Origin: Oscillospiraceae bacterium
GTDB lineage: Bacteria > Bacillota > Clostridia > Oscillospirales > Ruminococcaceae
Direction: 5' to 3'
Length of the DNA stretch: 64,000 nucleotides
Assembly (NCBI GenBank): GCA_021202155.1
Contig: JAJQDP010000019.1
Location: forward strand, 51,084 to 115,083
Of this stretch, positions 4,130 to 11,643 are shown piece after piece; the first letter of the stretch is position 1, and every line of letters starts with the position of its first letter. Under the pieces are notes generated by a model. That model had not been told where the DNA came from, did not search any database, and saw only the letters and a program-made list of their open reading frames with translations. The position numbers and the translations under genes are program-made.

Positions 4130-4662
4130 CAACACTTTTGCATATCTGCTGTGCGCCCTGCTCGCTCATGTGTATAGAAACTCTGCGCGAAGAGGGAATC
4201 GACGTTACCGGCTTCTGGTATAACCCGAACATTCACCCGTACACTGAGTACAAGGCTCGCCGCGATACGCTGATTCTCCACGCCCAGAACGTCAATATGC
4301 CTCTTGTGACGGTTGACGACTATGGTCTGAGAGAGTTCGTCCGCCTCGTCTATCCCGACTTGGAGGACAGGTGCGAGAAGTGCTATGACATCCGCCTTGA
4401 CCGTGCCGCTAAATATGCTTCCGAGAATGATTTCGACAGCTTTTCAACCTCCCTCCTCATCAGTCACTATCAGAAGCACGACCTCATCCGCGAGGTAGCC
4501 GAAAGGAAAGCCAAAAAATACAACGTCGCTTTCCTCTACCGCGACTTCCGCCCATATTTCCGCGAAGGTCAGAAACGCGCCCGCGAAGCCGGCTACTACA
4601 TGCAAAAGTACTGCGGCTGTATCTTCAGCGAAGAAGAACGCTACCTCAGCAAGAAGAAATAA
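4126..4662 (+). CDS. queH: epoxyqueuosine reductase QueH (DUF208)
   Basis: LLHICCAPCS at the N-terminus and CGCIFSEEER near the C-terminus are the conserved Cys motifs of DUF208/QueH. The start forms an ATGA overlap with surE. Confidence 0.85.
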   Translation: MTTLLHICCAPCSLMCIETLREEGIDVTGFWYNPNIHPYTEYKARRDTLILHAQNVNMPLVTVDDYGLREFVRLVYPDLEDRCEKCYDIRLDRAAKYASENDFDSFSTSLLISHYQKHDLIREVAERKAKKYNVAFLYRDFRPYFREGQKRAREAGYYMQKYCGCIFSEEERYLSKKK

Positions 4663-4666
4663 GAAG

Positions 4667-4691
4667 AGCCCGATTAATTTCGGGCTTTTTC
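4667..4691 (+). terminator. rho-independent terminator
   Basis: agcccga-ttaatt-tcgggct is followed by ttttt. Confidence 0.8.
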
Positions 4692-4705
4692 GATGCTAAA
4701 TTATA

Positions 4706-4746
4706 ACTTGCACGTTTGGAAAGTTTACTTGCACGATCGGAAAGTT
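4706..4746 (+). repeat. two tandem 20-nt direct repeats (ACTTGCACGnnnGGAAAGTT), 21-nt period, abutting a promoter
   Basis: acttgcacgtttggaaagtt (4706-4725) and acttgcacgatcggaaagtt (4727-4746) match at 17 of 20 positions. A third partial copy (acttgaca) overlaps the -35 box. Confidence 0.7.
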
Positions 4747-4752
4747 CTAAAC

Positions 4753-4781
4753 TTGACAAAAAGTGTGAAATGTGATATAAT
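4753..4781 (+). promoter_or_regulatory. sigma-A-type promoter of the XRE/TPR regulator gene
   Basis: TTGACA, a 17-nt spacer and TATAAT, with an extended -10 TG (tgTGaTATAAT). Confidence 0.65.
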
Positions 4782-4816
4782 AACTTTGTGCTTTAATCGA
4801 TTGGGGAGGTGGAGTT

Positions 4817-5728
4817 ATGGATAAAAAGACAATAGGAAAGATCATCAGCACACAGCGCGCCAAGAAAGGAATGTCGCTGACCGAACTGAGTAGTGGAATT
4901 TGCAACAAGTCCACACTTATGAGAATAGAAGCCGGAGAAGTGAATACCAGCACAGATACTCTATCCGGTCTTCTCGAAAGGCTCGGAATTCACGTGGATT
5001 TTGATGAAGCCAGCAATTTTGACGACATTCTCGTAAGGCAGATAATAAGGAGTGCAAATCAAGCTGACGTAACTGGCAACCGTACTGAGGCTCTTGAGCT
5101 TCTTAACACAATCGCTTCTGATTACGACAGCTTTTCATTGCAAAACAAACAGAGGTACGATGTCATAAACATCATGTTGCTTCATGAGGATAGAAAAATA
5201 ACCGATCAAACCAGACTCCATTACCTTGAGAAATCGATGAGATTGACACAGCCTAAATATAGTCTTGAAAATCTGCCACTTGTTATGACCGATATGGAAG
5301 CGCAGATACTTAGGTATATAGCGGCAACATATGGCATTATGGGAAATTATGATACTGCAATAGTAATCTACTATCATCTAAGAAACTACATTAAGCAAGA
5401 TGTAGACAAAATAGATTCTTCCAAAAAATTAGTGAATGTCTGCTATAATCTCTCTAAATGCCTTGGTCAGTCTGGCAGATACTCTGAAGGCGTAGAAATT
5501 GCAAAAGAAGGTATTGATGCGTGTCGGTTTACAAACAACGTATATATGCTTCCGCTATGTATGTACAATTATGCTTGGTCTCTTGCTTATAGGGATGAAG
5601 CCGGTGATTGGGACGAAGCAAGAAAATTAATGACTGAAATTTCAGCTTACTGTACCCCTATGACGAGAGATATTGATGCGCTAAAGAAGAACATTCGTGA
5701 GTTGAAAATAAAACTCGGCATTCAATAA
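4817..5728 (+). CDS. XRE-family HTH transcriptional regulator with a C-terminal TPR-like helical repeat domain (RNPP-like architecture)
   Basis: GGAGGTGGAG RBS. The N-terminal HTH is GKIISTQRAKKGMSLTELSSGICNKSTLMRIEAGE. About 230 aa of helical repeats follow (YNLSKCLGQSGRYSEGVEIAKEGI..., YNYAWSLAY). Codon usage is AT-rich. Confidence 0.8.
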   Translation: MDKKTIGKIISTQRAKKGMSLTELSSGICNKSTLMRIEAGEVNTSTDTLSGLLERLGIHVDFDEASNFDDILVRQIIRSANQADVTGNRTEALELLNTIASDYDSFSLQNKQRYDVINIMLLHEDRKITDQTRLHYLEKSMRLTQPKYSLENLPLVMTDMEAQILRYIAATYGIMGNYDTAIVIYYHLRNYIKQDVDKIDSSKKLVNVCYNLSKCLGQSGRYSEGVEIAKEGIDACRFTNNVYMLPLCMYNYAWSLAYRDEAGDWDEARKLMTEISAYCTPMTRDIDALKKNIRELKIKLGIQ

Positions 5729-5928
5729 TCTTCATCCATAATGTCTTCTATCGGAAGGTCACAATTCGGCGAACATTCCGGTTCTTTCTCCTCATCCTTG
5801 CGCTCGGTAATTTCCGTATTGTTTTCTGGTGGCAATTCCGGAGTGACGGTGATTTCGGTTGCGACCATTGATGCTGTCATAACGAGTGCCAATAGAATTG
5901 CTAAAATACTGTTTAATGCTTTTTTCAT
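5722..5928 (-). CDS. 68-aa secreted acidic pre-peptide, candidate signalling-peptide precursor
   Basis: AAAGAGG RBS 8 nt upstream. Sec-type signal MKKALNSILAILLALVMTASMVA. The mature part is acidic and Pro-rich, ending CSPNCDLPIEDIMDEDY. It has its own promoter. The 3' end overlaps the regulator's stop by 7 nt. Confidence 0.6.
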   Translation of the reverse strand: MKKALNSILAILLALVMTASMVATEITVTPELPPENNTEITERKDEEKEPECSPNCDLPIEDIMDEDY

Positions 5929-5981
5929 GAGAATAACCTCTTTCGATATAGTATTTCGTGCCTCTAAACACGATCATATTT

Positions 5982-6010
5982 ACTATATCATATTGGAGCA
6001 AATTTGTCCA
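5982..6010 (-). promoter_or_regulatory. promoter of the 68-aa pre-peptide gene
   Basis: On the minus strand: TGGACA, a 17-nt spacer and TATAGT, about 50 nt upstream of the RBS. Confidence 0.5.
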
Positions 6011-6020
6011 CCTTTTGACC

Positions 6021-6037
6021 GTTGCACGCCATGCAAC
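6021..6037. promoter_or_regulatory. perfect palindrome GTTGCA-N5-TGCAAC, candidate operator between divergent promoters
   Basis: Read directly from the sequence. It is nested inside an outer 7-bp inverted repeat, ccttttg (6011-6017) and caaaagg (6050-6056). Confidence 0.45.
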
Positions 6038-6168
6038 GCTCTCGGTTGACAAAAGGTAAAAAATTTGCTACCCTGTTCTTACAGCCACTTGTCGAGACAT
6101 TCTGCTATCGGCGCGCAATTAGCGGGATGGGTCGCGGGGCTGAAAAAATCTTATTAGGAGGTATTATC

Positions 6169-6486
6169 ATGAAAAAGGTAATATCAATAATGTTAGCAGT
6201 TGTTTTGGCTTTGAGCGTTATGTGTTCGTTCTCGTTTGCGGCTGAGGTGCCGGAAGAGGAAAGCGACGATTTGATGGTATCTGTGACCCTTTGCGAAAAT
6301 TGTTTCTCGTCTAATGTTACTATTATTGACTATCAGAGAGAAGTTTGGGATCGTACTGAAATCGTCGTTAATTCTGACCTCACAGCCACAGTATATCAGG
6401 TTTACAAGCTTTACAGAGACCTTTATTGTAATGATTGTGGAAAGTATTTTTCGCTGTATCTTGGTGAAAAGTATGTAGAGGATTGA
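6169..6486 (+). CDS. small secreted protein with CxxC...CxxC motifs (hypothetical)
   Basis: An internal ATG of the track ORF is preceded by TTAGGAGG. Signal peptide MKKVISIMLAVVLALSVMCSFSFA. The mature part has LCENCF and YCNDCGKYF. Confidence 0.65.
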   Translation: MKKVISIMLAVVLALSVMCSFSFAAEVPEEESDDLMVSVTLCENCFSSNVTIIDYQREVWDRTEIVVNSDLTATVYQVYKLYRDLYCNDCGKYFSLYLGEKYVED

Positions 6487-6497
6487 GCGAATAGTAG

Positions 6498-6590
6498 CCC
6501 TTGCAATGCGAGGGAAATTGAGTTTATAATGTCGTACTTAAGGAGAAATAAAATATGAATAAGAATATAATTTCCCTCGCGTTGCAAGGG
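6498..6590 (+). promoter_or_regulatory. 22-bp inverted repeat (one mismatch) bracketing the RBS and start codon of the first FtsX permease gene
   Basis: Arm 1 is cccttgcaatgcgagggaaatt (6498-6519). Arm 2 is aatttccctcgcgttgcaaggg (6569-6590, inside codons 5-12). The 49-nt loop holds AAGGAG and the ATG at 6555. Confidence 0.6.
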
Positions 6591-9092
6591 TTGCTTCGCA
6601 AGAAACATCAGACACTTCTCATAGTCGCTATACTAACCATCTCCTTCGCGTTTGCAGTAATGATGATTAGTTACACCAGCAGTATTGCCGCGACGAATGC
6701 TGAATATCGCTCTGAGGTCTATGGCACTTGGTACGGCGCGATTCCGATTGGATATGAGGGCGACGTAGATTTCTTGGAGAGTACAGACGGTGTTGATGAA
6801 GTGGGTCTCTCCACATCTTACGGAGCAGTCAGGACAAGCAGTTCGAGCTACAGTATAGGAACTATTGATGAGAACTTTGCATCGATGGGTCCGTATCTTC
6901 TTGAAGGTCGGCTTCCCGAGACGAGCGGGGAGATAGCCATGGAAGCAAATCTTTTGTCTGCACTCGGCTGTGACTATACATTGGGGCAGGAAATAACCAT
7001 GTATGTCTATTTTGATTATGAGATAGATGGGTTCACATACTATGCTCCGGTTCAGTGCACATTCACCCTTACCGGAGTAATCAACAGCTATACTAATATA
7101 TGGGGATTAACTAATATCGACTTAAACAGTGCTGTAATTGTTTCCGAAGATGCTGAGGCTCTCATGGCTGATGCAACGGAAAAGGCTGATGCAGAGATGA
7201 ACGGTTCGGTTGCTTCCTACTTCTTTACGACATCATCTGATGCAGACATTGATGCCGTCAAAACCGCAGTCAACGCCTATCTGAAATCAACTCGTGATGT
7301 GACAACAGAGCAAAGTATAACGGTGAACTCCTCAATATCCGCGACCGAAGCGGAAGCTGACTACAACACCGTTTATGTCATGCTGATATTTGTAGTAGCT
7401 ATCATTGCCGTCGTCGTAATCTACATACTACAGATGCAGTCGGAAGTAAGAAGAATCGTTCGCATTCGCAGTCTCGGCGGAACCAAGGGGCAAGTAAGGC
7501 TTCTCATTGCAACTGAAACTCTCATGCTGACTATCCCGTCACTGATAATAGGCACACTTTTCGGTGCGTTCGGAATCTGGCTTCTTCTGAAATTAAGTGT
7601 ATTCTCCGGCTCAGTCAGCGTTGTAGTAAGCATACCTGTGCAGGTGCTTCTTATAGCGGCTCTTGCCTGGATTTTTGGGATTTTCTTCGTAAGGTTCGTG
7701 ACGATTCAGGTTGCACTTTCAACTCCTTTGACAGGCACAATGGGAATGCAGGTCGGGAAGAGGCGGTTCTATGCCAGATTTCAGAAGGCACTCATACTTC
7801 TTATGTCAACAGTATTCTGTGGGACAGTGATATTTACAGCTTTTGTTTTGCAGACCCCAACCAAGGTTTATTCGTATTTCAAAGAATCACGTGACTATAC
7901 TATCGGGTATAGCACGCCTAAGTCATTAAACAAAAATAGCAAGGTGACAGACATTACAACCGACAATGTAATAGACATTGCATCTGTTCCGGGAATAGAT
8001 TATGTGAGGGCTTTTTCAGACCTGGAGGCAGATTTGGCTATAGACGGTGAAAGTCAGGGGTCTGTAGCTCTGCTCGTGATAGATTCGTCGCAGGACTGGG
8101 CAGAGATGTTTGATATGTCAGATGTAGACCTTGAAGCGTTTGAAAACGGCGAGCAAATTCTGATTGTAACAAATGAGAACTTTCAGGTTATAGTCGACGG
8201 GGAGAAGGTTACAACTGACTTTGACTTACAGCTTGAAGCCGGGGATATAGTTTCGCTCTCAGCTATGACAGACGTGGTCACCACGGATGATGAGGGAAAT
8301 AACATCACTCAAACAGTGACAGCGTCAACAGTTGACGTTGAAATCGCAAAAATAACTTCCGCTCTGTCAAGCAATATGTTTGAATTTGTAACCAGTGCGA
8401 TTTATGAACCCTATGTCATTGTTTGCTCTCGTGCAACCGTTCAAAGACTTGTAGACCTGCTTCCGGAAGATATGAGCTGGAATTACTCTCTGTCGTCTTT
8501 ATTAAGATATGAGGCGGGCGACACAGTCGGCTTCAGAAGGCTCTATGCCTATGCAAACGAGACCGCCGGGTACATATCCACCGATAAGACGTTGGCAACT
8601 CTTGTGAAGATAGCCGGACTTGAAATCTGGCAGAACGAAAGGGAATACAACTCCTCAATAATGCAAAGCTACCTCCAGCAGATTATCATGTACAGTGTGA
8701 GCGGAGTTTGTATAGCGTTCGTAGTGATTATTATACTTTCAAGTACCATACGACTTGAAACCCAGCGGGAGAAGAAGCGGTATGGAATCCTGCAAGCACT
8801 CGGCATGTCCCGCAGACAGAGAAATCTCAGACTGATGGGAACTGCATTTGCGCGGTCAGTCATATCTGTTGCCCTTGGCTGGGGAGCATACAGGCTCTAT
8901 GATTTTATCATTAACTTAGGAACTGAAACAGCGGAGGGCACTACCGTTCTTGTGACCAAATCATATATGTCCGGAGCAACTCCAGTTATTCTGACTGCAA
9001 TACTGTTCGCAGTAGTCTTCGGAATCAGTTATGTTTCAAAGCTTGGGCTGAATAAGTATACTCTGATGGAAATGCTCCGCGAGGACAGATAA
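6555..9092 (+). CDS. ABC-transporter-type permease with two FtsX domains and two large extracytoplasmic domains (MacB/YbbP-like)
   Basis: The N-terminus LALQGLLRKKHQTL plus a TM segment is followed by an extracytoplasmic domain with GRLPETSGEIAMEANLLSALG. There are two FtsX-type TM bundles (IRSLGGTKGQVRLLIATE and GILQALGMSRRQRNLRL). Confidence 0.85.
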   Translation: MNKNIISLALQGLLRKKHQTLLIVAILTISFAFAVMMISYTSSIAATNAEYRSEVYGTWYGAIPIGYEGDVDFLESTDGVDEVGLSTSYGAVRTSSSSYSIGTIDENFASMGPYLLEGRLPETSGEIAMEANLLSALGCDYTLGQEITMYVYFDYEIDGFTYYAPVQCTFTLTGVINSYTNIWGLTNIDLNSAVIVSEDAEALMADATEKADAEMNGSVASYFFTTSSDADIDAVKTAVNAYLKSTRDVTTEQSITVNSSISATEAEADYNTVYVMLIFVVAIIAVVVIYILQMQSEVRRIVRIRSLGGTKGQVRLLIATETLMLTIPSLIIGTLFGAFGIWLLLKLSVFSGSVSVVVSIPVQVLLIAALAWIFGIFFVRFVTIQVALSTPLTGTMGMQVGKRRFYARFQKALILLMSTVFCGTVIFTAFVLQTPTKVYSYFKESRDYTIGYSTPKSLNKNSKVTDITTDNVIDIASVPGIDYVRAFSDLEADLAIDGESQGSVALLVIDSSQDWAEMFDMSDVDLEAFENGEQILIVTNENFQVIVDGEKVTTDFDLQLEAGDIVSLSAMTDVVTTDDEGNNITQTVTASTVDVEIAKITSALSSNMFEFVTSAIYEPYVIVCSRATVQRLVDLLPEDMSWNYSLSSLLRYEAGDTVGFRRLYAYANETAGYISTDKTLATLVKIAGLEIWQNEREYNSSIMQSYLQQIIMYSVSGVCIAFVVIIILSSTIRLETQREKKRYGILQALGMSRRQRNLRLMGTAFARSVISVALGWGAYRLYDFIINLGTETAEGTTVLVTKSYMSGATPVILTAILFAVVFGISYVSKLGLNKYTLMEMLREDR

Positions 9093-9116
9093 GTTTTTGC
9101 AATTCGTGAAAATTCC

Positions 9117-9145
9117 TTGACAAGAAAGCAAAAATATGGTATAAT
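9117..9145 (+). promoter_or_regulatory. sigma-A-type promoter of the second FtsX permease gene
   Basis: TTGACA, a 17-nt spacer and TATAAT, a perfect consensus. Confidence 0.65.
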
Positions 9146-9189
9146 CTTATTATTCTTTAATCAATTGGAATGAAAGGTGAGATAGGACC

Positions 9190-11643
9190 ATGTTCAAAAC
9201 AATATTCGGTCTTGCATTTCAAGGTTTATGGAGAAGGCGGAAGCAGACGCTTGTTATAGTTTCTGTCCTGACAATATCGCTCCTTGTAGCTGTATTGGTT
9301 ATAAGCTATTCCGGCAGTATAACCGCCACGAATGAAGCCTATCGCTACACTATCTATGGCAGTTGGTACGGCTCTATTCCCTCCACTCAAGATGGCGATT
9401 ACGAATTTCTCTCTTCTCAGGACTGGCTCGATTCCCTCGGGACGAGTACAAACTACGGAACGGTTTCAGACTATGGAATCGGAACCGTTGACGAGAATCT
9501 TGCCGATATGGGCATAACTCTGCTTGATGGCAGACTTCCCGAATCGAGTGGCGAAATAGCTGTTGAGGAAGCACTTCTGAGTGCCTTGGGTTATGACCCT
9601 GTCGTCGGGCAGACAATTTCAATGAACGTGGTATTACATCGGGATGAAATCAAAGGGAACAATATAAGCATTGTCAAAACGTTCACGGTAACCGGCATCA
9701 TCTCCAACTATTCAAATCTCTGGCTAACTTCAACGCTATGCACACTGAACAGTGCAATTATAACGGAGGAGGATGCCCAGTCTCTATATGCTCAAGCCGA
9801 GCAATTCGCCTCCCGGAGAAATATTTCATTGTCGAACCCGTCGGTCTCTTACTATTTCACTGTCAAGGACGGCTGTGAGGACATAATGAAGGAAAGCGTG
9901 AACGCCTATCTTCGGGAAACAAGAAACAGTACCTTAGCCAGCGAAAATTCAGTTCTGACAAACACTCTGGCATATTCTCATAATGCCTCTGAAGCCAGCT
10001 ATAATTCTTTCTATATTGCACTCATATTTGCTGTTTCATTGCTTGCAGTCATCGTAATATATACACTCCAGTTTCAGCCGGAAGTTCAGAGGATTGTGAG
10101 GTTCAGAAGCTTAGGCGCAACAAAAGGACAAGTAAGGACACTTATCTTCACTGAAACAATGCTTTGTTGCGTCCCATCGCTGGTTCTCGGAACGGCTTTG
10201 GGAGCCATAGGAATAGTGATTCTTCTCAAACTCAGCGTATACACAGGTTCGGTTTCAATAGTCGTGAACATTCCGTGGTCAGCTCTATTGCCTGCAGTTT
10301 TCGTGTGGATATTGGGTATTTTAGCAATCAGAGCTGTAACAATTCAAATAGCCCTTGCAACTCCACTCACAGGCAAAATGGGCATGACCGCCAAGAGGAG
10401 ACGGCTTTCACAGAGGTTTCAAAAAATTCTTATCTTCGCAATGTCTGCGTCACTCTGCATTGCCGTTCTGTTCACATCTCTTAATTCCCTTTCAGCAATA
10501 TATTATTATAATACATGGAACAATAATTATGATTATTCGATTAAGGATATGTCGCTCAATAATGAAGGAATTTCGGACAGCGATATTGAAACTCTGAGCT
10601 CTGTTTTCGGCATTGACGATATTTTGGGCAAGACTATATTATACGCAAATGTATCCACCGAAACAGGCGACAACATTTCTGCAACGCTGTACGTAATAGA
10701 CGGCACTGCCGACTGGTCGCATGCATTTAACTTTTCCAAAGTAGATGTTGAGGACTTTGAAGATGGCAACAGCGTCATAGTCACGTTTGCTTCAAAGAGT
10801 GATGAAAACGTCGCCGGATTGAGTGATAAGGTAACTGTGAGCTATCAGAATATATCTGTGAGCGCGAATATTGCTTCCACTCAGATAACAGACATAATGG
10901 ACTATCTTGATTACGGAATGCCAGCCGTTTACTCCGGCGGATGTGGAATTGTCTGCTCAAGAGCATTTCTTCAGAAGATGGTGGATTCTCTTTCTGAAAA
11001 CGCCACCATCAGTACGTCGCAAAATTCCTATAAATCAGGCGATGAAGTGTTGAACTTTGAGAGTGCAGTCGGCTTCGCTAGTAGCAGTACCGCCGACGCT
11101 TCGACCGATAAGACGTTGATTTCAAAAGCTTCAAAGCTTGCATTGAGCGTTGTTGATAACAATCGTGCCGCCAATGATTCCCGCGCTCAAGACTATCTCC
11201 AGACGATAATTATGCTCTATGTCAGCGGAATCTGCATATCTGTCATAGTCCTCATCATCCTATTCAGCACCATCAAGCTCGAAACTCAGCGTGAAAAGAA
11301 GAGATACGGCATCCTTCAGGCGTTGGGTATGTCCCGCAGGCAGCGGAACCGTGAGCTCTTGCGGACGGCGTTTGTGAGGTCTGTCGTGGCGGTGGCGGTC
11401 GGTTGGGGAGCATACCTCGGGTCGGTTATAATCAGAAATCTTGACTCAATCAGAGAAGAAGGCGCAACGGTTCTGAGCGTCCTTTCAAGCTACATGAGCG
11501 ACCTCACCACCCGGTTCATACCATCATGGGCGATGATTCTTATGACAGCGGCGATGTTCGTGGCTGTGCTTCTGATATGCTACGTTTCAAAGTTAGGGCT
11601 CAACAAGTACAGCCTTATGGAAATGCTTCGCGAGGACAGATAA
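9190..11643 (+). CDS. paralogous double-FtsX ABC-type permease
   Basis: Same architecture as 6555..9092 with shared motifs (GRLPESSGEIAVEEALLSALG, FRSLGATKGQVRTLIFTE, KKRYGILQALGMSRRQRN). The C-termini are near-identical: KLGLNKYSLMEMLREDR here and KLGLNKYTLMEMLREDR in the first gene. Confidence 0.85.
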   Translation: MFKTIFGLAFQGLWRRRKQTLVIVSVLTISLLVAVLVISYSGSITATNEAYRYTIYGSWYGSIPSTQDGDYEFLSSQDWLDSLGTSTNYGTVSDYGIGTVDENLADMGITLLDGRLPESSGEIAVEEALLSALGYDPVVGQTISMNVVLHRDEIKGNNISIVKTFTVTGIISNYSNLWLTSTLCTLNSAIITEEDAQSLYAQAEQFASRRNISLSNPSVSYYFTVKDGCEDIMKESVNAYLRETRNSTLASENSVLTNTLAYSHNASEASYNSFYIALIFAVSLLAVIVIYTLQFQPEVQRIVRFRSLGATKGQVRTLIFTETMLCCVPSLVLGTALGAIGIVILLKLSVYTGSVSIVVNIPWSALLPAVFVWILGILAIRAVTIQIALATPLTGKMGMTAKRRRLSQRFQKILIFAMSASLCIAVLFTSLNSLSAIYYYNTWNNNYDYSIKDMSLNNEGISDSDIETLSSVFGIDDILGKTILYANVSTETGDNISATLYVIDGTADWSHAFNFSKVDVEDFEDGNSVIVTFASKSDENVAGLSDKVTVSYQNISVSANIASTQITDIMDYLDYGMPAVYSGGCGIVCSRAFLQKMVDSLSENATISTSQNSYKSGDEVLNFESAVGFASSSTADASTDKTLISKASKLALSVVDNNRAANDSRAQDYLQTIIMLYVSGICISVIVLIILFSTIKLETQREKKRYGILQALGMSRRQRNRELLRTAFVRSVVAVAVGWGAYLGSVIIRNLDSIREEGATVLSVLSSYMSDLTTRFIPSWAMILMTAAMFVAVLLICYVSKLGLNKYSLMEMLREDR

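Follow-up and report, generated by a model that had tools for sequence, protein, structure and literature searches.

A PlcR-like receptor gene and its convergent, overlapping precursor gene in an Oscillospiraceae bacterium: a probable peptide quorum-sensing cassette

In a 64-kb stretch of DNA from an Oscillospiraceae bacterium (hereafter the window), a gene for a putative regulator of 303 amino acids (aa) meets, tail to tail, a small open reading frame (ORF) on the opposite strand that encodes a putative secreted precursor peptide of 68 aa. According to the ORF list of the window, the regulator occupies 4817-5728(+) and the small ORF 5722-5928(-), so that both share the 7 nucleotides (nt) 5722-5728, where the stop codon TGA of the peptide gene (5722-5724) and its Tyr68 codon (5725-5727) coincide with the final sense codons and the TAA of the regulator. 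An initial annotation of the locus, which had proposed an RNPP-like regulator with a convergent pre-peptide gene, was reproduced exactly in the coordinates of both ORFs and of their overlap, and the ribosome-binding site AAAGAGG that it had named is present at 5943-5937(-). In addition, the small ORF is called as a gene by public gene callers in two assemblies of the same organism. The locus is probably a genuine peptide-signalling module that comprises a PlcR-like receptor and a probable secreted pheromone gene, and its central features are the following.

4817..5728, plus strand: receptor (regulator) gene, 303 aa; XRE-type helix-turn-helix (HTH) domain at residues ~1-62, a linker helix and five helix pairs resembling tetratricopeptide repeats (TPR) from residue 89 to 300
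5722..5928, minus strand: putative pheromone precursor gene, 68 aa, marked by conservation and an excess of third-position differences
5722..5728, both strands: gene overlap of 7 nt, without a terminator-like hairpin nearby on either strand
5937..5943, minus strand: Shine-Dalgarno sequence AAAGAGG of the pre-peptide gene, 8 nt ahead of the ATG at 5928 and conserved in the related loci

Receptor, precursor and their joint variation

The N-terminal domain of the regulator is recognised by Pfam as HTH_3 (E 6.6e-6; 26.5 bits vs. a cut-off of 23). An AlphaFold2 model, for which 13 homologues were available in the alignment, reaches a pLDDT (predicted local distance difference test) of 89.8 and displays the HTH, a long linker helix and ten more helices, i.e. 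11 helices after the HTH. Comparison of this model with the PDB by Foldseek yielded the PlcR-PapR-DNA complex 3u3w as the best match (E 2e-8), followed by PlcR 2qfc, Rgg2 and ComR, all with a probability of 1.0, and the structural alignments with PlcR comprise 18-20% identical residues. Likewise, a profile of the regulator family matches PlcR at E 4.9e-11, ahead of Rgg, ComR and PrgX, with the match resting chiefly on the HTH (residues 1-76) and one weak TPR stretch. Moreover, the near-invariant N211 of the family ('CYNLSK') is aligned to N201 of PlcR ('RYNHAK'), and N251 and N110 are invariant in the family alignment; in RRNPP receptors, conserved asparagines of the concave face contact the peptide backbone (PMC4794775). 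Based on the modelled fold, the Foldseek matches, the PlcR profile match and the N211/N201 alignment, the regulator is assigned to the RRNPP receptors that combine an HTH with five TPRs, with PlcR as the nearest solved relative, and hence to clan A of RRNPPA, which holds the five-TPR receptors including Rgg and TprA (PMC12700828). The initially proposed RNPP-like architecture of HTH plus TPR is thereby borne out, and predicting the regulator alone, a check that had been suggested, did return a TPR fold. A tblastn search of the 64-kb window retrieved no paralogue of the regulator. Many members of the family (P0037, P0038, P0042 and others) measure ~600-650 aa and consist of two whole HTH-TPR receptors fused in tandem.

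A search of 5.8 billion proteins returned only 13 close homologues of the regulator (46-100% identity). Its wider family is much larger: in a HMMER scan of 1.84 billion representatives, 84 clusters pass a limit of E<=1e-30, and the number rises to 1688 when E<=1e-10 is allowed; one distant family member is listed in 201 blocks of a public collection, and relatives were not found when metagenome contigs of the Joint Genome Institute were scanned with the regulator profile. The loci compared below (designated by L numbers) all derive from metagenome-assembled or short contigs, the close ones comprising 13 loci from a scan of GTDB species genomes and others obtained by exact-protein-sequence look-ups.

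A convergent and overlapping small ORF adjoins the regulator in 25/25 related loci, which span 27-100% regulator identity. In the close loci, the ORF encodes a signal-peptide-bearing product of 68-79 aa and overlaps the end of the regulator gene by 4, 7, 20, 29 or 37 nt, while four distant members (38, 32, 32 and 27% regulator identity) feature a convergent signal-peptide ORF of 65-80 aa with an overlap of 8-9 nt. Because the same arrangement recurs in close loci and in these four distant members, the convergent overlapping layout is a trait typical of the clade rather than a chance arrangement at one locus. The reading frame is open in 24 of the 25 loci despite 30-75% protein divergence, and all changes in length are in-frame; the initial annotation had made its proposal depend on the small ORF being kept wherever the regulator is retained, and it is present throughout and disrupted in one locus only. 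Within the close group, differences fall at the third codon position far more often than at the first and second (848 vs. 462 and 410), and single-nucleotide codon changes are synonymous in 379 and non-synonymous in 298 cases. By these comparative measures, the small ORF is a conserved, translated and signal-peptide-bearing partner of the regulator.

The view that the minus-strand unit works chiefly through a non-coding RNA antisense to the regulator gene, with the ORF being incidental, would draw on the overlap itself, since without a terminator the minus-strand transcript is antisense to the 3' end of the regulator gene. Such a role is very improbable as the sole explanation, given the openness of the frame in nearly all loci, the in-frame length changes, the third-position and synonymous excess, and the conservation of both ribosome-binding site and signal peptide. 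Moreover, coding and antisense roles are mutually compatible.

The precursor can be divided into four parts besides a spacer.

5857..5928, minus strand: Sec-type signal peptide MKKALNSILAILLALVMTASMVAT, residues 1-24, called heuristically from hydrophobicity and charge, with predicted cleavage after VAT/VAS
5761..5784, minus strand: motif E49-P-E-C-S-P-N-C56 (EPxCxxNC), in which E49 and P50 are nearly invariant
5743..5760, minus strand: variable core D57-L-P-I-E-D62, which co-varies with the C-terminal part of the receptor and is the putative specificity part
5725..5742, minus strand: acidic tail I63-M-D-E-D-Y68, which closes with an aromatic residue that is conserved in the alignment of loci

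The N-terminus opens with MKK and continues through 21 residues without charge, the last three of which are VAT, E25 being the first acidic residue, and the mean Kyte-Doolittle hydropathy amounts to 2.7 over the best 15 residues. The remaining 44 residues comprise 16 D/E vs. 3 K/R, in agreement, at the level of such heuristics, with the signal peptide and the acidic C-terminal part claimed at the outset. The signal peptide, called by composition heuristics, is conserved over all loci aligned and is succeeded by a variable acidic spacer, the EPxCxxNC motif, a core of ~6 residues and the acidic tail, which ends in Y, F, L or M. Several classes of core can be distinguished, namely D/N-x-P-I/V-x-D/E (DLPIED in the window), D/E-x-S/P-W-x-D and E-A/S-G-F/I-x-x. 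Distant relatives (27-38% regulator identity) keep a P-x-C-D-x-x-P-like signature near the C-terminus of the precursor. A lipoprotein reading of the precursor was rejected, as the signal peptide in the window is devoid of a lipobox Cys.

The initial annotation had anticipated a conserved C-terminus with the rest being variable. On the contrary, the signal peptide, the EPxCxxNC motif and the acidic tail are conserved, while variation is found in the internal core D57-D62. Because the variable part is internal, the active peptide is probably not simply a C-terminal 5-10-mer; the signal probably lies inside the precursor and would have to be trimmed at either end, and the EPxCxxNC motif may constitute a processing or recognition site. 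Furthermore, the terminal Y/F is kept though the frame of the overlap differs between loci, and hence selection maintains it in the peptide, whereas the stop codon of the regulator does not dictate it.

The closest link between both genes is their joint variation, which involves one further feature.

5325..5725, plus strand: putative specificity-determining TPR region, residues ~170-303, harbouring all residues that separate receptors of different peptide cores

Domain-wise identity matrices of the receptors from L003 and L004 give 97% for the HTH, 88% for the middle part but only 57% for residues 151-300. On the DNA level, both loci are mostly 97-98% identical from upstream of the regulator start as far as codon ~80, after which identity drops to 90-93% until codon ~110, and it returns to mostly 97-98% from about peptide codon 45 back through the promoter and the target leader. 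In between lies a contiguous divergent block of ~0.6 kb with 42-78% identity, which encodes receptor residues ~115-310 together with peptide residues ~48-68, and across which the peptide core changes from DLPVRD to DESWLD. Among the close loci, 23/23 positions separating the receptors of P-type from those of W-type cores lie at residues 170-301, though the close subfamily is small and related, so that these counts do not represent independent events. Since the TPR region of the receptor and the core of the peptide are exchanged as one block, they would form a cognate receptor-pheromone pair: the joint swap argues for the small ORF encoding the ligand of its neighbouring receptor, and among the lines of evidence that require no experiment it is the strongest. 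The convergent layout places both specificity determinants side by side, which makes them exchangeable in a single event.

The same exchange bears on the possibility that the small ORF yields a secreted acidic product with a function of its own, such as a carrier or the precursor of a bacteriocin or of a ribosomally synthesised and post-translationally modified peptide (RiPP), with the receptor sensing something else and the co-location reflecting co-regulation only. The conserved Cys pair (CxxxC) is indeed unusual for RRNPP pheromones, and there is a weak N-terminal likeness to JUQZ_fam_ocin (E 0.034), which probably concerns the signal peptide only. The exchange of the core together with the receptor TPR region in the L003/L004 mosaic, and the persistence of the pairing down to 27% receptor identity while the downstream targets differ, nonetheless render an independent function improbable. 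A bacteriocin/RiPP reading in particular was rejected: the mature part is strongly acidic, unlike typical bacteriocins, no modification enzymes are encoded in the vicinity, and some copies do without one of the Cys residues: L004, L006 and L019 have Tyr instead of the second, and L009 has Ser instead of the first.

Control region, junction and target genes

The elements that presumably govern expression of both genes, and of a target operon beyond the precursor gene, are listed here.

4707..4746, plus strand: two tandem 19-nt boxes CTTGCACG-N3-GGAAAGTT, ending 6 nt upstream of the -35 box of the regulator promoter
4753..4781, plus strand: regulator promoter TTGACA-17-TATAAT with TG extension, from a consensus scan (12/12 matches)
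5945..5989, both strands: two-tier inverted repeat with outer arms GATATAGTA/TACTATATC and inner arms TCGTG/CACGA (-13.8 kcal/mol, z -4.9)
5982..6010, minus strand: pre-peptide promoter TGGACA-17-TATAGT with TG extension, from the scan; TTGTCCA and ACTATA are conserved on the plus strand in the related loci
6021..6037, both strands: candidate operator palindrome GTTGCA-CGCCA-TGCAAC, 10 bp from the peptide -35 box and 8 bp from the target -35 box
6046..6074, plus strand: target promoter TTGACA-17-TACCCT, read from the sequence, with a weak -10 box that kept it off the list of the consensus scan; its position and hexamers are conserved in the related loci

The pre-peptide promoter of the initial annotation was recovered by the consensus scan at 6010-5982(-) with 10/12 matches, its -35 box TGGACA lying at 6010-6005(-), and it diverges from the target promoter, whose -35 box TTGACA and -10 box TACCCT are located at 6046-6051 and 6069-6074, respectively. 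The palindrome resides between these mirrored promoters, is centred in a larger imperfect palindrome (6001-6066) and constitutes a single match in the 64-kb window. The same geometry is found in other loci, several of which carry two operator copies 20-21 bp apart. Its sequence differs with the class of HTH: GTTGCG-N5-CGCAAC represents a symmetric change of both half-sites, and other classes feature TTGTGAGT-N-ACTCACAA, a single or doubled TTTGCAT-N-ATGCAAA, or CTTGCACG-N3-GGAAAG. Because it changes symmetrically with the HTH class, the palindrome at 6021-6037 fits a receptor operator and is considered the candidate for this role.

With regard to the direction of control, the weak -10 box of the target promoter and the position of the operator upstream of the -35 boxes favour activation, while good -35 boxes and the doubled operators of some loci leave repression open. 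Repression would involve the same components, except that the peptide-free receptor silences both promoters from the palindrome until the peptide releases it, in the manner of TprA/PhrA, PrgX or Rgg3. The hexamers TGGACA and TTGACA, the extended -10 box of the peptide promoter and the two operator copies 20-21 bp apart, which suit cooperative or looping repression, are in keeping with such a switch, and TprA is a PlcR-type repressor. This scheme appears rather doubtful, however, in view of the weak -10 boxes of the targets (TACCCT, TACGAT, TACCAT), of an operator that ends 8-10 bp upstream of the -35 boxes without overlapping them, as is typical of an activator site, and of the closest structure being that of the activator PlcR.

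Upstream of the regulator promoter, the tandem 19-nt box yields 2 matches in 64 kb vs. 0.06 expected. A box CTTGCAYR-N3-GGAAAGTT likewise precedes the -35 box of the receptor gene by 6 nt in several receptor classes (L003 1272-1290, L004 4894-4912, L007 1882-1900, L009 4892-4910, L010 4894-4912 and L019 3386-3404). In one paralogous class (L008 6231-6269, L014 6226-6244, L015 6217-6235 and L023 4726-4744), this box, identically spaced, constitutes the operator that separates the peptide promoter from the target promoter, while the receptor promoters of that class are themselves devoid of it. Since the operator box of one class sits before the receptor genes of others, it is suggested that one receptor system controls the expression of the receptors of other systems, and the boxes at 4707-4746 may thus be an input from another receptor. 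Both kinds occur together in some metagenome-assembled genomes (MAGs), such as U.10_1 with L008 and L010, while in others a receptor of the box class was not found.

In several relatives (L003 1150-1290, L004 4770-4900, L007 and L010-L013), ~130 nt upstream of the receptor promoter are conserved and contain two hairpins, CACACTAGACTTTCC..GGAAAGTCGTGTG and CCAAAAGGG..CCCTTTTGG. Genes for primase-like (Zn-ribbon DnaG) and extra HTH proteins adjoin (L004 3575-4117, L010 3159-3701, L019 1964-2203), and this association suggests that some receptor cassettes ride on mobile elements. The cassette in the window lies between queH and an alpha-galactosidase gene, and the same site is occupied elsewhere by a cassette of a different class (L008, L014, L023), by a closer one (L021) or by that of L006.

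At the junction of the two convergent genes, no terminator-like structure was detected by the scan on either strand, and folding of the junction is no better than that of shuffled sequences (z -0.54 and +0.34). On the plus strand, the first strong structure past the junction is the hairpin at 5945-5989, which regulator transcripts would reach only once they had traversed the whole peptide gene in antisense. Peptide transcripts, for their part, would meet no convincing stop on the minus strand until the bidirectional QueH terminator at 4667-4686 and would thus cross the whole regulator gene. In the absence of a terminator, mutual interference or antisense pairing would be unavoidable if both promoters fire, and an antisense or transcriptional-interference coupling of the two genes is therefore plausible. 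The -10 box of the peptide promoter falls within the right outer arm of the 5945-5989 repeat, the inner hairpin of which is situated where the peptide mRNA begins. In nine class-1 loci that were folded, the repeat scores z -2.2 to -5.2 in seven and is weak in L019 and L020. For regulator mRNA that reads through on the plus strand, it could serve as the 3' end or as a stabiliser, or it could represent a further protein-binding site.

The features beyond the target promoter are as follows.

6079..6151, plus strand: structured 5' leader of ~73 nt (TTACAG..CGAGAC..GGGTCG..GCTGA), model R1, z -2.8
6169..6486, plus strand: first target gene, a secreted Cys-rich protein of 105 aa with CxxC pairs reminiscent of a zinc ribbon; no family assigned
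6555..11643, plus strand: two genes for large FtsX-type permeases (MacB-like, duplicated; 6555-9092 and 9190-11643), probably co-transcribed targets

The leader begins at the predicted transcription start of the target promoter. With its covariance model R1, each of 21 loci yields a single copy at E<=1.6e-10 (e.g. L014 6284-6358 and L010 9365-9439), 90% of the cells are paired vs. 27-46% when the alignment is slid, and six pairs are changed on both sides. The apical loop forms a 6-nt palindrome that varies in sequence (GCGCGC, GUGCAC, UGUACA, CGUACG, UGCGCA) and is palindromic throughout. In L010-L013, the leader stands behind a second promoter that bears an operator and is located beyond the first FtsX gene. 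Because model R1 has no convincing match in the distant loci L024-L028, the leader is considered specific to the Oscillospiraceae subgroup, and an Rfam search of 4600-6600 returned no credible family for this region, the leader included. Candidate roles comprise a 5' stabiliser, a protein or ligand binding site and a kissing-loop dimer.

Homologues of the Cys-rich protein occupy the same position in L004, L007, L010, L019 and L022, and an FtsX gene also follows in L003, L004, L007, L009-13, L016, L017, L019 and L022. No ATPase gene is adjacent to the FtsX permeases in the window; in L019, the gene of an ABC (ATP-binding cassette) ATPase follows. Since target genes elsewhere encode C39/C70-like cysteine peptidases, an M23 peptidase, Fn3 proteins and FtsX permeases, the common theme of the predicted targets appears to be secreted or envelope functions, as in other RRNPP regulons. 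A secreted papain-like protein (Peptidase_C39_2/C70) is encoded by the first receptor-controlled gene in L014 (6499-7353), L015 (6372-7562), L020 (4870-5865) and L027 (4437-5087); it could be a plain target or an extracellular protease that matures the pheromone. Around the start of the first FtsX gene of the window, a 27-nt inverted repeat (6493-6595) with 89% complementarity and 49 nt between its arms comprises the first codons of this gene (start 6555) in its 3' arm. This hairpin was rejected as a part of the system, as it is not conserved in six other loci, and Rfam matches to MIR397 on both strands were dismissed because they reflect the same long hairpin.

A quorum-sensing circuit and its possible meaning

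In general terms, it is quite probable that the locus constitutes a self-contained peptide quorum-sensing cassette of the RRNPP type with a PlcR-like receptor. The 303-aa receptor would be made from its own strong promoter, while the 68-aa precursor would be exported via Sec with removal of the signal peptide after about residue 24. Outside the cell, the acidic pro-peptide of 44 residues would be trimmed to a short peptide with the core DLPIED, which follows EPxCxxNC, and this peptide would be re-imported to bind the concave face of the C-terminal TPR repeats. A receptor dimer is envisaged to act at GTTGCA-N5-TGCAAC (6021-6037) between the divergent promoters and to switch both the peptide gene, as feedback, and the target operon of leader, Cys-rich protein and two FtsX-type permeases. 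By analogy to PlcR the switch would be an activation, with derepression as in TprA, PrgX or Rgg3 being the alternative. Each transcript would run antisense into the other gene and probably cause interference or antisense damping as in prgX/prgQ, and the specificity region of the receptor would recombine together with the peptide core as a unit on one block of ~0.6 kb.

This interpretation is carried by the fold of the receptor, the conservation of the pair, coding selection on the small ORF, the co-variation of the receptor C-terminus with the peptide core and of the operator with the HTH, and the absence of a terminator at the junction. Several points have to be weighed against it. To begin with, we infer export, the processing site, uptake, binding, the direction of regulation and the antisense effect. 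The source is the MAG of an uncultured Oscillospiraceae bacterium. Matches of the window regulator to TPR_12, TPR_2 and RNPP_C all remain under the curated Pfam thresholds, RNPP_C (PF18768) attaining 18.3 bits vs. a gathering cut-off of 26.5, though precomputed PF18768 matches exist for many relatives. The consensus or near-consensus -35 boxes of the promoters flanking the operator fit derepression about as well as activation. Finally, the small ORF of L006 is frameshifted by a 1-nt deletion in the A-run after its ATG, with the remaining frame being intact, which is due either to a homopolymer assembly error or to a decaying (or phase-variable) copy. The run in question (L006 6100-6111), directly after the ATG of the pre-peptide gene, reads A6 vs. 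A7 elsewhere; the receptor promoter of L006 also lacks the upstream box and several of its leader pairs are broken.

A more far-reaching reading, which we entertain only tentatively and regard as unlikely in its full extent, holds that the overlap is an old and selected design principle of a large clostridial PlcR-like clade, in which the roles of cassette, antisense, hierarchy and leader operate jointly. Accordingly composed of several parts, it proposes that the ~0.6-kb cassette may allow pherotype exchange by a single recombination, of which L003 and L004 look like a caught example, and that the mutually antisense transcripts may provide a built-in threshold or toggle. In addition, the operator of one paralogous class may act before other receptor genes, twice before that of the window, and the targets may be driven through a previously undescribed structured leader RNA.

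Peptide signalling has received little characterisation among the strictly anaerobic Clostridia, for instance the Oscillospiraceae and their relatives, and the family described here is large. The comparative data predict the signal core (6 residues), the receptor residues that read it, the operator palindrome and the responding genes. They also offer a rationale for the convergent layout, in that the specificity determinants on one block are inherited together. If the antisense coupling and the hierarchy between systems hold true, the family would represent a compact natural example of a multi-layer quorum-sensing circuit.

Comparison with known peptide-signalling systems

Five criteria define the RRNPP signature (Bernard et al. 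2023, PMC10075063), and the locus agrees with each of them: the propeptide size (68 aa in the window and 61-80 aa in relatives, inside the range of 10-100 aa), the Sec signal (by heuristic), the size of the TPR receptor (303 aa, inside the range of 250-500 aa), the adjacency of both genes and the HTH_3 domain. A description of this clade was not found in the literature searched, and nothing searchable in the supplements of the RRNPP_detector paper refers to convergent systems or to these taxa.

The nearest system is PlcR-PapR of the Bacillus cereus group, which shares an HTH plus five-TPR receptor of ~290-300 aa, the best structural and sequence match here, an adjacent small Sec-exported precursor, a palindromic operator of ~17 bp and a regulon of secreted factors. 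In PlcR-PapR, papR is located co-directionally downstream of the receptor gene, the PlcR box reads TATGNAN4TNCATA, and the C-terminal 5-7 residues form the active peptide. In contrast, the regulator of the window is only 18-20% identical to PlcR, its peptide gene is convergent and overlapping, and the candidate operator GTTGCA-N5-TGCAAC is not a PlcR box and resides between mirrored divergent promoters. The core, moreover, is internal, with a Cys motif before it and a conserved acidic tail of 6 residues after it, and hence processing would be needed on both sides. The core DLPIED resembles the PapR sequence ADLPFEF, a likeness that serves as a lead only.

The initial annotation had held co-directional or divergent peptide genes to be the usual case, yet precedents for a convergent layout exist in Group III Rgg/SHP and in prgX/prgQ. 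SHPs are short hydrophobic peptides that are exported by PptAB and are not known to carry a Sec signal. In the streptococcal Group III Rgg/SHP systems, the peptide gene overlaps the 3' end of the receptor gene and is convergently transcribed (PMC13361665), and the receptor belongs to the same five-TPR clan A; the window, in contrast, encodes a 68-aa precursor in which a classical signal peptide is combined with an acidic pro-region, and its receptor is closer to PlcR than to Rgg. In PrgX/prgQ (iCF10) of Enterococcus faecalis pCF10, the units of receptor and peptide face each other, too, and convergent transcription is an established layer of control, with interference and antisense regulation (Chatterjee 2011, as cited in PMC5552905). 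There, however, the overlap concerns the 5' ends, with promoters facing each other, in contrast to the 3' ends in the window, and the effect has been demonstrated, whereas for the window it is extrapolated. TprA/PhrA of Streptococcus pneumoniae likewise unites a PlcR-branch receptor of clan A with a Sec-exported precursor, and its paralogous systems engage in cross-talk (PMC13361665).

Taken together, the system is neither PlcR-PapR proper, from which it differs in gene order, operator and peptide anatomy, nor Rgg/SHP, from which its Sec-type precursor and PlcR-closer receptor set it apart. From the comparative evidence, we judge it to represent a PlcR-like clade of Clostridia, within a known kind, whose Sec-type pheromone gene invariably converges on the receptor gene and overlaps it. 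Neither peptide-receptor signalling as a principle nor a convergent peptide gene as such is new; new are the evidence that a specificity cassette recombines, the operator between mirrored promoters, the possible hierarchy between systems and the undescribed leader RNA.

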